Below, piece by piece: positions 42,848-53,800 of a stretch of DNA of 64,000 bases; within the stretch, counting starts at the first letter, position 1; each line of letters opens with the position of its first letter. The stretch is from Escherichia coli. Its GTDB lineage: Bacteria; Pseudomonadota; Gammaproteobacteria; Enterobacterales; Enterobacteriaceae. The notes below the pieces were generated by a model, which saw only the letters and a list, made by a program, of their open reading frames with translations, did no database searches and had not been told where the DNA came from. The stretch lies in NCBI RefSeq assembly GCF_003790525.1, contig NZ_CP033636.1; one strand, written 5' to 3'. Made by a program: the position numbers and the translations under genes.

Positions 42848-43667
42848 GGCACTGTTGCAAATAGTCGGTGGTGATAAACTTATCATCCCCTTTTGCTGAT
42901 GGAGCTGCACATGAACCCATTCAAAGGCCGGCATTTTCAGCGTGACATCATTCTGTGGGCCGTACGCTGGTACTGCAAATACGGCATCAGTTACCGTGAG
43001 CTGCAGGAGATGCTGGCTGAACGCGGAGTGAATGTCGATCACTCCACGATTTACCGCTGGGTTCAGCGTTATGCGCCTGAAATGGAAAAACGGCTGCGCT
43101 GGTACTGGCGTAACCCTTCCGATCTTTGCCCGTGGCACATGGATGAAACCTACGTGAAGGTCAATGGCCGCTGGGCGTATCTGTACCGGGCCGTCGACAG
43201 CCGGGGCCGCACTGTCGATTTTTATCTCTCCTCCCGTCGTAACAGCAAAGCTGCATACCGGTTTCTGGGTAAAATCCTCAACAACGTGAAGAAGTGGCAG
43301 ATCCCGCGATTCATCAACACGGATAAAGCGCCCGCCTATGGTCGCGCGCTTGCTCTGCTCAAACGCGAAGGCCGGTGCCCGTCTGACGTTGAACACCGAC
43401 AGATTAAGTACCGGAACAACATGATTGAATGCGATCATGGCAAACTGAAACGGATAATCGGCGCCACGCTGGGATTTAAATCCATGAAGACGGCTTACGC
43501 CACCATCAAAGGTATTGAGGTGATGCGTGCACTACGCAAAGGCCAGGCCTCAGCATTTTATTATGGTGATCCCCTGGGCGAAATGCGCCTGGTAAGCAGA
43601 GTTTTTGAAATGTAAGGCCTTTGAATAAGACAAAAGGCTGCCTCATCGCTAACTTTGCAACAGTGCC
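42848..43667 (+). mobile_element. IS26 copy 5 (820 bp), V171M transposase variant
   Basis: Exact IS26 IRs; flanks tgagaacg / cactagtg. Confidence 0.95.
42911..43615 (+). CDS. tnpA: IS26 transposase, V171M ([10 protein letters not shown]), G184 form
   Basis: Single substitution relative to copies 1, 2, 6. Confidence 0.9.
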
Positions 43668-44673
43668 CACTAGTGAGGGGCGGCAGCGCATCAAGCGGTG
43701 AGCGCACTCCGGCACCGCCAACTTTCAGCACATGCGTGTAAATCATCGTCGTAGAGACGTCGGAATGGCCGAGCAGATCCTGCACGGTTCGAATGTCGTA
43801 ACCGCTGCGGAGCAAGGCCGTCGCGAACGAGTGGCGGAGGGTGTGCGGTGTGGCGGGCTTCGTGATGCCTGCTTGTTCTACGGCACGTTTGAAGGCGCGC
43901 TGAAAGGTCTGGTCATACATGTGATGGCGACGCACGACACCGCTCCGTGGATCGGTCGAATGCGTGTGCTGCGCAAAAACCCAGAACCACGGCCAGGAAT
44001 GCCCGGCGCGCGGATACTTCCGCTCAAGGGCGTCGGGAAGCGCAACGCCGCTGCGGCCCTCGGCCTGGTCCTTCAGCCACCATGCCCGTGCACGCGACAG
44101 CTGCTCGCGCAGGCTGGGTGCCAAGCTCTCGGGTAACATCAAGGCCCGATCCTTGGAGCCCTTGCCCTCCCGCACGATGATCGTGCCGTGATCGAAATCC
44201 AGATCCTTGACCCGCAGTTGCAAACCCTCACTGATCCGCATGCCCGTTCCATACAGAAGCTGGGCGAACAAACGATGCTCGCCTTCCAGAAAACCGAGGA
44301 TGCGAACCACTTCATCCGGGGTCAGCACCACCGGCAAGCGCCGCGACGGCCGAGGTCTTCCGATCTCCTGAAGCCAGGGCAGATCCGTGCACAGCACCTT
44401 GCCGTAGAAGAACAGCAAGGCCGCCAATGCCTGACGATGCGTGGAGACCGAAACCTTGCGCTCGTTCGCCAGCCAGGACAGAAATGCCTCGACTTCGCTG
44501 CTGCCCAAGGTTGCCGGGTGACGCACACCGTGGAAACGGATGAAGGCACGAACCCAGTGGACATAAGCCTGTTCGGTTCGTAAGCTGTAATGCAAGTAGC
44601 GTATGCGCTCACGCAACTGGTCCAGAACCTTGACCGAACGCAGCGGTGGTAACGGCGCAGTGGCGGTTTTCAT
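43668..44673 (-). CDS. intI1: class 1 integron integrase IntI1 (last ~2 codons replaced by IS26 junction)
   Basis: [19 protein letters not shown]...[20 protein letters not shown] then reads into IS26. Confidence 0.9.
44558..44586 (+). promoter_or_regulatory. Pc cassette promoter, PcW configuration
   Basis: TGGACA-17 bp-TAAGCT within intI1 coding region. Confidence 0.6.
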
Positions 44674-44845
44674 GGCTTGTTATGACTGTTTTTTTGTACA
44701 GTCTATGCCTCGGGCATCCAAGCAGCAAGCGCGTTACGCCGTGGGTCGATGTTTGATGTTATGGAGCAGCAACGATGTTACGCAGCAGGGCAGTCGCCCT
44801 AAAACAAAGTTATGCAGCCAAATCCCAACAATTAAGGGTCTTAAA
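44674..44845. other. attI1 region of integron 2 (approximate)
   Basis: Between intI1 start and first cassette ATG. Confidence 0.55.
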
Positions 44846-45298
44846 ATGGTAAAAGATTGGATTCCCATCTCTCATGATAATTACAAGCAGGTGCAAGGAC
44901 CGTTCTATCATGGAACCAAAGCCAATTTGGCGATTGGTGACTTGCTAACCACAGGGTTCATCTCTCATTTCGAGGACGGTCGTATTCTTAAGCACATCTA
45001 CTTTTCAGCCTTGATGGAGCCAGCAGTTTGGGGAGCTGAACTTGCTATGTCACTGTCTGGCCTCGAGGGTCGCGGCTACATATACATAGTTGAGCCAACA
45101 GGACCGTTCGAAGACGATCCGAATCTTACGAACAAAAAATTTCCCGGTAATCCAACACAGTCCTATAGAACCTGCGAACCCTTGAGAATTGTTGGCGTTG
45201 TTGAAGACTGGGAGGGGCATCCTGTTGAATTAATAAGGGGAATGTTGGATTCGTTAGAGGACTTAAAGCGCCGTGGTTTACACGTCATTGAAGACTAG
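44846..45298 (+). CDS. arr-2: rifampin ADP-ribosyltransferase Arr (arr-2/arr-3 group)
   Basis: 150-aa MVKDWIPISHDNYKQVQGPFYHGTKANLAIGDLLTTGFISHFEDGRILKHIYFSALMEP...; allele number not verifiable here, arr-2 guessed from the cmlA-blaOXA-10-aadA1 array. Confidence 0.8.
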   Translation: MVKDWIPISHDNYKQVQGPFYHGTKANLAIGDLLTTGFISHFEDGRILKHIYFSALMEPAVWGAELAMSLSGLEGRGYIYIVEPTGPFEDDPNLTNKKFPGNPTQSYRTCEPLRIVGVVEDWEGHPVELIRGMLDSLEDLKRRGLHVIED

Positions 45299-45490
45299 TC
45301 CTTTGCATAACAAAGCCATCAAACCGGACGCCAGAGATTCCGCGCCTGTTGCGCATGGCTTCGCCATTTTATGCGCAATAGGCGCGCCACCCTGTCGCCG
45401 TTTATGGCGGCGTTGGGCGCACAATAAGGCTCCTCGCAGAGTTGCTTGAAAGTTGTTACGATTCAAATTCAATCATGAGATAGTCAGCAG

Positions 45491-45520
45491 ATGAGCACTT
45501 CCAAGAACGCAGACAAGTAA
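45491..45520 (+). CDS. cmlA leader peptide (translation attenuation)
   Basis: ATGAGCACTTCCAAGAACGCAGACAAGTAA encodes MSTSKNADK, upstream of cmlA SD AAGGAG. Confidence 0.6.
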   Translation: MSTSKNADK

Positions 45521-45618
45521 GCCGCAGCAACCTTCATTTTTCGGTTGTTGCGGCGTTCTCATGAATCCTTTTGCTCTACGGGAGCGCCGCCAAATCCTTT
45601 GTTCAAGGAGATGGTTTC

Positions 45619-46878
45619 GTGCGCTCAAAAAACTTTAGTTGGCGGTACTCCCTTGCCGCCACGGTGTTGTTGTTATCACCGTTCGATTTATTGGCATCAC
45701 TCGGCATGGACATGTACTTGCCAGCAGTGCCGTTTATGCCAAACGCGCTTGGTACGACAGCGAGCACAATTCAGCTTACGCTGACAACGTACTTGGTCAT
45801 GATTGGTGCCGGTCAGCTCTTGTTTGGACCGCTATCGGACCGACTGGGGCGCCGCCCCGTTCTACTGGGAGGTGGCCTCGCCTACGTTGTGGCGTCAATG
45901 GGCCTCGCTCTTACGTCATCGGCTGAAGTCTTTCTGGGGCTTCGGATTCTTCAGGCTTGTGGTGCCTCGGCGTGCCTTGTTTCCACATTTGCAACAGTAC
46001 GTGACATTTACGCAGGTCGCGAGGAAAGTAATGTCATTTACGGCATACTCGGATCCATGCTGGCCATGGTCCCGGCGGTAGGCCCATTGCTCGGAGCGCT
46101 CGTCGACATGTGGCTTGGGTGGCGGGCTATCTTTGCGTTTCTAGGTTTGGGCATGATCGCTGCATCTGCAGCAGCGTGGCGATTCTGGCCTGAAACCCGG
46201 GTGCAACGAGTTGCGGGCTTGCAATGGTCGCAGCTGCTACTCCCCGTTAAGTGCCTGAACTTCTGGTTGTACACGTTGTGTTACGCCGCTGGAATGGGTA
46301 GCTTCTTCGTCTTTTTCTCCATTGCGCCCGGACTAATGATGGGCAGGCAAGGTGTGTCTCAGCTTGGCTTCAGCCTGCTGTTCGCCACAGTGGCAATTGC
46401 CATGGTGTTTACGGCTCGTTTTATGGGGCGTGTGATACCCAAGTGGGGCAGCCCAAGTGTCTTGCGAATGGGAATGGGATGCCTGATAGCTGGAGCAGTA
46501 TTGCTTGCCATCACCGAAATATGGGCTTCGCAGTCCGTGTTAGGCTTTATTGCTCCAATGTGGCTAGTGGGTATTGGTGTCGCCACAGCGGTATCTGTGT
46601 CGCCCAATGGCGCTCTTCGAGGATTCGACCATGTTGCTGGAACGGTCACGGCAGTCTACTTCTGCTTGGGCGGTGTACTGCTAGGAAGCATCGGAACGTT
46701 GATCATTTCGCTGTTGCCGCGCAACACGGCTTGGCCGGTTGTCGTGTACTGTTTGACCCTTGCAACAGTCGTGCTCGGTCTGTCTTGTGTTTCCCGAGTG
46801 AAGGGCTCTCGCGGCCAGGGGGAGCATGATGTGGTCGCGCTACAAAGTGCGGAAAGTACATCAAATCCCAATCGTTGA
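45619..46878 (+). CDS. cmlA: chloramphenicol efflux MFS transporter CmlA (cmlA5-like), GTG start
   Basis: VRSKNFSWRYSLAATVLLLSPFDLLASLGMDMYLPAVPFMPNALGTTASTIQLTLTTYLVMIGAGQLLFGPLSDRLGRRPVLL... Confidence 0.9.
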   Translation: MRSKNFSWRYSLAATVLLLSPFDLLASLGMDMYLPAVPFMPNALGTTASTIQLTLTTYLVMIGAGQLLFGPLSDRLGRRPVLLGGGLAYVVASMGLALTSSAEVFLGLRILQACGASACLVSTFATVRDIYAGREESNVIYGILGSMLAMVPAVGPLLGALVDMWLGWRAIFAFLGLGMIAASAAAWRFWPETRVQRVAGLQWSQLLLPVKCLNFWLYTLCYAAGMGSFFVFFSIAPGLMMGRQGVSQLGFSLLFATVAIAMVFTARFMGRVIPKWGSPSVLRMGMGCLIAGAVLLAITEIWASQSVLGFIAPMWLVGIGVATAVSVSPNGALRGFDHVAGTVTAVYFCLGGVLLGSIGTLIISLLPRNTAWPVVVYCLTLATVVLGLSCVSRVKGSRGQGEHDVVALQSAESTSNPNR

Positions 46879-47142
46879 GAGAATGTGGCAAGCTATCGCC
46901 CAACAAATCGCTGCAGCCGACCCAAAACCGCTACGCGGTTTCGGTCGGCTGAGCTCAGGCGTTAGGCCTCGCCGAAGCGAAAGATCGCTACTTGAAGTGT
47001 TGACGCCTTTGTTTTAAAGTTTCGCGTCTATCTTTCTGATTTTGTTAAAAAATCAGACTTTGATTAATCATGTTAGACGTCAGAGGTATTTTGACTTAAA
47101 CGCCTCTGAGGTCGAATTAACGTTAGCCACCAAGAAGGTGCC

Positions 47143-47943
47143 ATGAAAACATTTGCCGCATATGTAATTATCGCGTGTCTTTCGAGTACGGCATTAGCTG
47201 GTTCAATTACAGAAAATACGTCTTGGAACAAAGAGTTCTCTGCCGAAGCCGTCAATGGTGTCTTCGTGCTTTGTAAAAGTAGCAGTAAATCCTGCGCTAC
47301 CAATGACTTAGCTCGTGCATCAAAGGAATATCTTCCAGCATCAACATTTAAGATCCCCAACGCAATTATCGGCCTAGAAACTGGTGTCATAAAGAATGAG
47401 CATCAGGTTTTCAAATGGGACGGAAAGCCAAGAGCCATGAAGCAATGGGAAAGAGACTTGACCTTAAGAGGGGCAATACAAGTTTCAGCTGTTCCCGTAT
47501 TTCAACAAATCGCCAGAGAAGTTGGCGAAGTAAGAATGCAGAAATACCTTAAAAAATTTTCCTATGGCAACCAGAATATCAGTGGTGGCATTGACAAATT
47601 CTGGTTGGAAGGCCAGCTTAGAATTTCCGCAGTTAATCAAGTGGAGTTTCTAGAGTCTCTATATTTAAATAAATTGTCAGCATCTAAAGAAAACCAGCTA
47701 ATAGTAAAAGAGGCTTTGGTAACGGAGGCGGCACCTGAATATCTAGTGCATTCAAAAACTGGTTTTTCTGGTGTGGGAACTGAGTCAAATCCTGGTGTCG
47801 CATGGTGGGTTGGGTGGGTTGAGAAGGAGACAGAGGTTTACTTTTTCGCCTTTAACATGGATATAGACAACGAAAGTAAGTTGCCGCTAAGAAAATCCAT
47901 TCCCACCAAAATCATGGAAAGTGAGGGCATCATTGGTGGCTAA
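47143..47943 (+). CDS. blaOXA-10: class D beta-lactamase OXA-10 type
   Basis: 266-aa [81 protein letters not shown]... Confidence 0.9.
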
Positions 47944-52369: not shown

Positions 52370-53584
52370 TTAGACGACTGGCGACTTCTCGGTGGCAGCC
52401 CCACGGAGCCGAAGGAGCACCAGCCCCAACGAAACCAGTACCGCCATCGCCGTGGCGTAACAGATCACGGGCCACGCTGTGTCACCGTTTAAAAGTGCCA
52501 CCGCCAATGTCCCGACAATGCTGACTATCAGGCTTTGAACGCAGAAGTAGAACGCGACCGCTGATCCCGCGATGTCGTCGAACTCTGCCAAAGCGCCGTT
52601 CGCGGTAACGGACACCGTGAAGACAATACCGACCGCGACAACCCACATCGGTAGGATGAAGGTGAGGAATGACGGCGAGCCGTAAAGTTCGCCGATCCCC
52701 AACAGGACCGCTCCGCAAACAAGCAACGCCATCCCACGCGCCACGCATCCTGCGATGCCCCATCTGGCGACAAAGGACTTCGCGAAACGGGTTGTCACGA
52801 TCATTACAAGCGCGACAGTGGCGAAGGCAAAGCTGAATCCGATCTCGGAATATTCCGCTTGGCCTATGAGCACACGGGTAGCCGTCGAGAAGAAGACGAA
52901 GTAGGTGCCCATACCGGCGCTAAAGCCGACAGTGTAAACCCAAAAAGCCGGACTCGCGAAGATCGGCAAGACAGATCGGCGCGTCTTGACTTGATCCAGA
53001 GGGCGGGTTTCGTGCCACCTGAAACCCGCATTTAGGAGTGCGAGCATCGCCAGTATAGCCAAAGTAATGAATATCGCCTGCCATCCCAAGAACTCGCCGA
53101 TCAATGCTCCGGCGATAGGGCCGAGCGCAGGCACGAACGCCAGCATCGAACTGAAAAGGCCGTAGATGACGACACCCTCAGGACGGTTGGCATAAACGTC
53201 GCGAACCGTCGCGAACGTCGCCACCAGCATGGCCGACGCGCCCACTGCTTGAAGTAGACGGAAAGCGACAAAGGCCGGTGCAGTTGAAGACCAAGCTGCT
53301 CCCAGAGACGCAATGACGAAAGCCGTTGCGCCCGCAAGTAGAATTGGCCGTCGCCCGATTCTGTCTGAGAGCGGACCAAAAATCACCTGGCCCACGCCGA
53401 GCATCACCATATAGAGGCTCAACGTGAGTTGGATCATAGCGGGCGTCGTGTTCAGGATGCCGGGCATCGCTGGAACGACAGGGAGATAAATATCCATCGC
53501 CAGTGAAGCGAGGATGTCGAAAGGAGCCATCAGCAGCAGTGCTGCCGGCAGCGTATAGGCCCACGCGGGGCGTGTGGTGGTCAT
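52370..53584 (-). CDS. floR: florfenicol/chloramphenicol efflux MFS transporter FloR
   Basis: 404-aa MTTTRPAWAYTLPAALLLMAPFDILASLAMDIYLPVVPAMPGILNTTPAMIQLTLSLYMVMLGVGQVIFGPLSDRIGRRP... Confidence 0.95.
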   Translation of the reverse strand: MTTTRPAWAYTLPAALLLMAPFDILASLAMDIYLPVVPAMPGILNTTPAMIQLTLSLYMVMLGVGQVIFGPLSDRIGRRPILLAGATAFVIASLGAAWSSTAPAFVAFRLLQAVGASAMLVATFATVRDVYANRPEGVVIYGLFSSMLAFVPALGPIAGALIGEFLGWQAIFITLAILAMLALLNAGFRWHETRPLDQVKTRRSVLPIFASPAFWVYTVGFSAGMGTYFVFFSTATRVLIGQAEYSEIGFSFAFATVALVMIVTTRFAKSFVARWGIAGCVARGMALLVCGAVLLGIGELYGSPSFLTFILPMWVVAVGIVFTVSVTANGALAEFDDIAGSAVAFYFCVQSLIVSIVGTLAVALLNGDTAWPVICYATAMAVLVSLGLVLLRLRGAATEKSPVV

Positions 53585-53800
53585 GACGAATCAACCCTCG
53601 ATTAAGGAATACCGGGCGACGTCTGCTCGTCAGCAATCAGATGAGACTAGCCTTACAGAGCGCCGCAACAACAATACTGGTTGTTGCGGCTTACTTGTCT
53701 GCTGACTTGGAATTTCCCATCTGATTACTCCACGCTTACGAATATGAATTGCTACATTTTATCCGATTATCTTTTGCTTCGCAATGCGGCATGGGCGCAC

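Follow-up and report, generated by a model that had tools for sequence, protein, structure and literature searches.

The exporter gene cmlA5 is the second cassette of a class 1 integron in the window, by which we mean the whole 64,000-nucleotide stretch of DNA analysed here. The order is intI1 (43561-44673, minus strand), attI1, arr-3 (44846-45298), cmlA5, blaOXA-10, aadA1 and dfrA14. In other contexts, after aadA2 or after IS26, identity to the window begins at GTTGGGC, 45412, and Bissonnette and co-workers reportedly gave the cassette length as 1,549 nt in 1991. At the other end of the integron IS26 (window 42893-43700) adjoins and replaces the 3' end of intI1, so that the frame continues into IS26 as an ORF of 370 aa. 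Because this C-terminus of IntI1 is foreign, the integrase is probably inactive and the cassette array fixed. A scan of 44500-47200 against Rfam 15 returned no family on 45413-45640 at E <= 10. The sole significant match of the neighbourhood is AAC_AAD_leader at 44763-44829 (77 bits, E = 6e-16), which is attI1; this correspondence between the proposed aminoglycoside riboswitch and attI1 has been pointed out (review, PMC8876359). All features are collected in Table 1.

Table 1. Features of the cmlA5 cassette, its regulatory region, the integron promoters and the floR locus in the window
Feature	Position	Strand	Basis or remark
Pc, TGGACA-17-TAAGCT, no TGN	44558..44586	+	sequence
P2, 14-nt spacer, inactive	TTGTTA 44677-82 / TACAGT 44697-702	+	sequence
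cmlA5 gene cassette, 1,549 nt, from arr-3 attC core GTTGGGC (TT) to own attC core GTTAGGC (G)	45413..46961	+	sequence
Candidate promoter TCGCAG (45434-39), 17 nt, TACGAT (45457-62), the latter preceded by TGT (extended -10-like)	45434..45462	+	conservation; putative function
Alternative candidate promoter TTGAAA (45446-51), 16 nt, TTCAAT (45468-73)	45446..45473	+	-10 ends about 145 nt before GTG
Weak leader Shine-Dalgarno sequence GAGA	45477..45480	+	anti-SD duplex -2.7 kcal/mol
Leader ORF MSTSKNADK and TAA	45491..45520	+	sequence; arrest site from PMC11190716
Arrest codons GAC (Asp8, P site) and AAG (Lys9, A site)	45512-14 and 45515-17	+	published toeprinting, PMC11190716
Segment 1, GCCGCAGCAACC, 5' arm of helix 1:2	45521..45532	+	folding; starts right after leader stop
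Segment 2, GGTTGTTGCGGCGTTCTC	45543..45560	+	pairs with segment 1 (45543-54) or segment 3 (45550-60)
Segment 3, GGGAGCGCCGCCAAATCCTT	45580..45599	+	pairs with segment 2 (45580-90) or segment 4 (45582-99)
Segment 4, cmlA translation initiation region, within helix 3:4	45605..45626	+	SD AAGGAG 45605-10, GTG 45619-21
cmlA5, chloramphenicol efflux MFS transporter, 419 aa, GTG start	45619..46878	+	ORF; annotation of identical plasmid sequence
floR CDS	52370-53584	-	
Homologous 9-codon leader MGNSKSADK upstream of floR, then same hairpin	53691..53720	-	sequence; putative attenuator in PMC5890775, PMC8256890

Ahead of cmlA5 the sequence reads ATG AGC ACT TCC AAG AAC GCA GAC AAG TAA (45491-45520) and is translated into MSTSKNADK followed by a stop. 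The stop codon occupies 45518-20, and 98 nt (45521-45618) separate it from GTG 45619-21, which opens a frame of 419 codons that ends at 46878. The same GTG is the CmlA5 start in the PGAP annotation of an identical stretch of the Salmonella plasmid NZ_CP028170. An earlier note on this DNA had placed a 9-codon leader MSTSKNADK 98 bp upstream of the cmlA GTG, and sequence, translation and annotated start agree with it exactly; the interval 45491-45618 given there extends from the leader ATG through the last base ahead of the GTG. A degenerate 36-nt pattern built on the leader and the first hairpin arm has 2 matches in the window, one at cmlA and one at floR, with 0.00 expected from 100 shuffles, and the 171-nt region folds with a z of -3.7 relative to shuffles. 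A mini-ORF of two codons, ATG AGA TAG (45475-45483), overlaps the Shine-Dalgarno (SD) sequence of the leader, and ATG AGA TAA is found at its position in several Xenorhabdus and Acinetobacter relatives (L009, L010), not in all.

The full-length cmlA leader that has been characterized by toeprinting consists of Met, STS, the arrest motif KNAD and Lys9, and at sub-inhibitory chloramphenicol the ribosome stalls on it while Asp8 occupies the P site and Lys9 the A site (PMC11190716). Alignment of the window with CmlA1-annotated cassettes gives 0 differences in the leader ORF, so that the sequence deviation named in the earlier note as refuting evidence is absent. According to a review, Stokes and Hall described a leader of 9 aa together with two alternate stem-loop pairs, one of which sequesters the SD sequence and the start codon of cmlA (PMC8876359). 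Such alternative structures are also found here in silico. In the minimum free energy (MFE) fold, helix 1:2 joins 45521-32 with 45543-54 over 12 bp from the leader stop onward, and helix 3:4 joins 45582-92 with 45612-26, includes an inner hairpin of 45595-99 with 45605-09 and covers both AAGGAG and GTG. Helix 2:3 (45550-60 with 45580-90, 11 bp) is mutually exclusive with both of them. Calculated in isolation, the helices 1:2, 3:4 and 2:3 reach -21.1, -19.4 and -18.3 kcal/mol, respectively, and the inner SD hairpin -2.6 kcal/mol. The cmlA SD sequence itself is strong, with an anti-SD duplex of -8.5 kcal/mol, and that of the leader is weak (Table 1); relatives carry GGAG, AGGA or AGGAG at the same position. 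Hence, the match to the described cmlA attenuation arrangement that the earlier note had drawn, and for which it proposed RNA folding as a check, is borne out by the identity of the leader peptide with the toeprinted one and by the helices recovered. The MFE fold contains a further 8-bp helix, UCAUGAGA / UCUCAUGA (45473-45480 with 45557-45564), that encloses the leader ORF and hairpin 1:2 and would pair the weak SD sequence of the leader with the 3' flank of this hairpin. Just 3-5 bp of it are seemingly kept in relatives inspected by eye. This outer helix may reflect an SD/anti-SD-like composition, and it could modulate translation of the leader.

Under constrained folding the alternative helices act as a switch. 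We blocked the bases covered by a ribosome, approximating its footprint as P site -12 to +15, and calculated the ensemble cost of opening 45603-45633. This cost is 14.5 kcal/mol in free RNA and does not fall when the leading edge of the ribosome stands at 45518-21, that is with codons 5-6 in the P site (13.5-15.3 kcal/mol). With the leading edge at 45524, 45527 or 45530 it amounts to 8.3, 6.5 and 5.9 kcal/mol. A ribosome arrested at codons 8/9 lies over most of segment 1, and with this stall masked the predicted cost of exposing the cmlA start site is 6.5 instead of 14.5 kcal/mol. Since the cost falls for stalls at the 3' end of the leader alone, the switch is flipped just where the published toeprint lies. 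An early stall at Lys5/Asn6 (penultimate residue Ser4) does not qualify as the trigger, as masking to 45518-21 brings no drop in cost and the toeprint lies at codon 9.

What lies ahead of cmlA5 is very probably the intact translation attenuator of cmlA cassettes, which responds to chloramphenicol, in its common cmlA5 form. In the absence of the drug, ribosomes would translate the nine codons of the leader and terminate, and in the mRNA the helices 1:2 (45521-32/45543-54) and 3:4 (45582-99/45605-26) would bury AAGGAG and GTG. At sub-inhibitory chloramphenicol, a ribosome carrying MSTSKNAD-tRNA would stop at codons 8/9, Asp8 being in the P site and Lys9 in the A site. By covering most of segment 1 it would free segment 2, which could then pair with segment 3 (45550-60 with 45580-90) and thereby release segment 4, so that drug-free ribosomes could initiate cmlA. 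A regulation that takes place chiefly at the RNA level, with transcription attenuation at hairpin 1:2 or a stabilization of the mRNA that depends on the drug instead of unmasking of the ribosome binding site (RBS), would fit the strength and the G+C-rich nature of this hairpin, and it would fit reports that the mRNA of floR, which has a homologous leader and hairpin, rises upon addition of florfenicol or chloramphenicol (PMC5890775, PMC8256890). We regard it as very unlikely nonetheless. The terminator scan predicts no intrinsic terminator at helix 1:2 and no T-run follows the hairpin, the conserved and mutually exclusive pairings 2:3 and 3:4 include the SD sequence and the start codon, as predicted for a translational switch, and more mRNA is the expected secondary effect of translation that protects the transcript. 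Given the induction at the mRNA level reported for floR, stabilization or transcription attenuation may still have a share in the regulation within the family.

The attenuator of cmlA1 (In4 of Tn1696; Stokes and Hall, 1991; Bissonnette et al., 1991) has the same MSTSKNADK peptide, the same spacing of 98 nt, SD sequence and GTG; all four pairing segments are alike and segments 1-3 are identical. The element in the window is the cmlA attenuator that was described in 1991 and has repeatedly been reviewed since; it is already known and extremely common. Over 45430-45640 the window is 99.1% identical to cassettes annotated as CmlA1, which are plasmid copies and not the Tn1696 record itself, with 2 differences in 211 nt (45435, 45622) and none of them in the leader ORF, helix 1:2 or helix 2:3. 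At 45435 the window (cmlA5) has C where cmlA1 has T, inside a conserved -35-like hexamer. At 45622, the first base of codon 2, it has C where cmlA1 has A, which changes Ser to Arg. With C45622, helix 3:4 regains a G-C pair, and opening costs 14.5 kcal/mol compared to 13.4 kcal/mol with the cmlA1-like A. C looks ancestral at this position because the closest relatives (L007-L009) carry it. From the sequence we predict that, with C45435 and C45622 together, cmlA5 is expressed at a lower basal level than cmlA1.

The 211 bp of 45430-45640 are found in 1,216 plasmid records; among the plasmid matches listed, about one third are identical (cmlA5 type) and most others have 99.1% identity (cmlA1 type). 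The 13.2 kb around the attenuator match several large plasmids of Salmonella and E. coli at 100% identity, and among 5,426 complete E. coli genomes 424 contain the 189 bp of 45430-45618. Among RefSeq E. coli records, 12 of the 442 that match 45430-45618 were listed and none of these 12 has the feature annotated, which means that genome-based resistance prediction ignores the leader.

Relatives of the element reach far beyond the mobile cassettes. An alignment scan with CmlA5 and FloR, using one genome per species, yielded 80 loci with a protein identity of 47-99%, among them loci of Xenorhabdus, Achromobacter, Thalassospira, Halomonas, Pectobacterium, Rhizobiales (many), Sphingomonas, Paracoccus, Azospirillum and Myxococcus. 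A short ORF is present in 79 of the 80 loci (L006-L085); this ORF, mostly of 9 codons, ends about 100 nt before the transporter start and is directly followed by the hairpin GCCGCAACAAC / GTTGTTGCGGC (region ~1320-1500 of each locus); in the exception, L026, the match starts at residue 29. The nucleotides of this hairpin are more conserved than the transporter proteins. In one locus (L054) the leader stop codon reads TAC and the frame runs on. As one of the 79 leaders lacks the final codon, 78 were counted, and these 78 species encode 56 distinct leader peptides. In 77 of the 78, Ala, Ser or Thr precedes the P-site residue, in line with the statement that chloramphenicol prefers nascent chains with these residues (PMC10192921). 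The P-site residue is Asp in 67/78 and the last codon Lys or Arg in 69/78. In a few natural variants D is replaced by V, I, E, T or R (for example MSKKAVK, MSTTEKAIK and MGTTETATR), the Xenorhabdus leaders have 11 codons and end in TDR, and leader codons vary synonymously, such as GAC/GAT and GCA/GCC/GCG. Masking applied to 71 homologous leaders gave a mean fall in opening cost of 6.3 kcal/mol and a fall of at least 1.4 kcal/mol in each, compared to 0.44 +/- 2.1 kcal/mol in dinucleotide shuffles and 1.65 kcal/mol for an early stall.

These relatives bear on the explanation that the nine codons form an ORF by chance and that the hairpins are leftovers of integron recombination sites without a regulatory role. 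Short ORFs are plentiful, with 100 of at least 20 aa in 6 kb, and attC sites are imperfect inverted repeats, as seen for 45341-56 with 45371-86. However, the distance of leader and hairpins from the attC core is at least 78 nt, which places them well within the cassette, and they are kept ahead of chromosomal, non-integron homologs in Xenorhabdus, Achromobacter, Rhizobiales and Myxococcus with synonymous or conservative codon changes. Ribosome arrest on the leader has moreover been demonstrated experimentally (PMC11190716). A chance origin is refuted by these observations, and we assign it practically no probability.

The pairing pattern of the attenuator is likewise conserved, although relatives share a phylogeny and the following counts are not independent. 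Helix 1:2 is paired to 96-99% across relatives and to 96% in an alignment of 68 sequences. Helix 2:3 is paired to 93% in these 68 relatives and to 30-57% when the partners are slid by 1-3 columns, and 6 of its pairs have changes on both sides. At its closing pair, 25 of the 68 relatives have double changes that keep the pair (21 C-G, 4 U-G) compared to 38 with G-C. Members of the cmlA clade hardly differ in sequence, so that covariation among them is sparse, with 3 double changes in helix 2:3. RNAalifold recovers helix 1:2, the lower part of 2:3 and the inner SD hairpin for this clade, not the full outer helix 3:4. The helix 3:4 of the window is paired to 79-87% in the cmlA clade and to 62-72% over both clades, the lower value arising because the floR clade uses a different register. 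A single 3:4 register for the cmlA and floR clades was rejected on the ground that the cmlA register is just 62-72% paired over the whole alignment. We consider it reasonably likely that nearly all CmlA/FloR-type MFS exporters of Proteobacteria carry a leader of 7-11 codons that ends in [Ala/Ser/Thr]-Asp-[Lys/Arg]-stop, followed by a four-segment switch. In the literature searched, which is itself incomplete, we did not find such a breadth of the leader family across chromosomal exporters.

The second member of the family in the window precedes floR, with the attenuator region at 53563-53735 on the minus strand. The putative floR attenuator (Li et al., 2018, PMC5890775; Qian et al., 2021, PMC8256890) has MGNSKSADK where cmlA has MSTSKNADK, and its first hairpin is near-identical to the family hairpin given above. 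For floR, one hairpin has been described that does not overlap the floR RBS, and its role was left open (PMC5890775, PMC8256890). RNAalifold finds that the floR clade has a 3:4 hairpin of its own, CCGCC(A/G)A ... U(U/C)G(A)GCGG, which holds the SD-like GAGCGG. The alternative helix 2:3 is found in the floR clade as well. For the mobile floR, masking predicts a weak switch with a fall in opening cost of 2.5 kcal/mol. Together, this modelling suggests that floR has a four-segment switch like that of cmlA, and the floR hairpin would then work through an exchange of the pairings 2:3 and 3:4. The family-wide conservation and this four-segment model of floR are the sole, mildly new points of our analysis.

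Several known systems follow the same principle. The attenuators of cat-86/catA and fexA share with cmlA a short leader ORF, a chloramphenicol-dependent arrest and the release of a sequestered RBS. The cat attenuators, as Lovett's reviews are said to describe them, consist of a single stem-loop with its 5' arm inside the leader ORF, and arrest takes place at codon 6. In cmlA, in contrast, there are two alternate helix pairs and arrest is at the last sense codon; the regulated gene encodes an MFS exporter in cmlA and an acetyltransferase in cat. Inducer and arrest motif of cmlA are those of the cat leaders, and a common arrest ('crb') motif has been reported for the cmlA and the cat/fexA leaders (PMC11190716). 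The ermC attenuator follows the same four-segment logic, being off with 1:2 and 3:4 formed and on with 2:3 after a stall over segment 1, a comparison that has also been drawn in a review (PMC8876359). It differs from cmlA by its macrolide inducer, a longer leader, another arrest peptide and the lack of sequence homology.

The integron promoter Pc here is the weak variant PcW, the weakest of the Pc variants. The Pc variants are also listed in PMC6491665. P2 is inactive because its spacer is 14 nt long. Under a weak PcW and an inactive P2, the promoterless cassettes arr-3, blaOXA-10 and aadA1 should be weakly expressed. For cmlA, promoter-probe assays showed activity of a promoter, PcmlA, that is located 145 bp ahead of the start codon, and cmlA5 was expressed from the seventh position of In53 (review, PMC8876359). 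A sigma-70 consensus scan finds no promoter in the cmlA UTR and leaves the candidate TCGCAG-17-TACGAT unflagged; the assignment is hence based on literature and conservation. A pattern TTGCAN-16/17-TAYGAT is conserved 5' of the leader in many chromosomal relatives, with TCGCAG as the -35 hexamer in the window and TTGCAG in cmlA1. TTGAAA-16-TTCAAT, which is not conserved in relatives and from which a transcript would lose the SD sequence of the leader, is the weaker of the two candidate promoters. Transcription of cmlA5 may start from a cassette-borne promoter. The earlier note had held cmlA expression to be probably inducible and partly independent of Pc, and both can reasonably be presumed from the literature, the latter especially so with a weak PcW.

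Expression of cmlA5 could nevertheless be essentially constitutive, through Pc read-through, the own promoter or both, with an attenuator that is present and plays a minor part in resistance. In a clinical collection, carriage of cmlA1/cmlA5 was a good correlate of phenotypic resistance, as determined by standard tests in which the cells were not intentionally pre-induced. The folding leaves some room for such a reading, too, as the inner SD hairpin persists in the stalled state, where opening still costs 6.5 kcal/mol, and the uninduced cost of 14.5 kcal/mol is about one standard deviation above shuffles (10.9 +/- 3.8). However, the drug used in an MIC test is the inducer itself, and the clinical correlation is therefore uninformative. 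Moreover, compared with cmlA1 the switch carries no weakening mutation, the G-C pair at C45622 adds to helix 3:4, and the strong purifying conservation of leader and helices over 79 species argues for their importance. We judge a largely constitutive expression to be very unlikely and infer that, in this replicon, resistance would be induced through the translation attenuator.

For the window, the finding matters solely for annotation and for the interpretation of the phenotype. Because the cassette brings its own regulatory region, inducible resistance is expected despite a weak Pc, and cmlA5, although second in an array under the weakest Pc, should still confer inducible chloramphenicol resistance. 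For the family, the comparison offers a testable model of floR induction, which was left open in the literature, and the 56 leader variants are a natural library for context-specific chloramphenicol arrest. If the attenuator is indeed as widespread as the relatives indicate, the mobile cmlA and floR would have inherited their regulation from chromosomal ancestors, and the Val, Ile or Glu variants in place of Asp as well as the differences at 45435 and 45622 would tune the basal level or the range of inducers.
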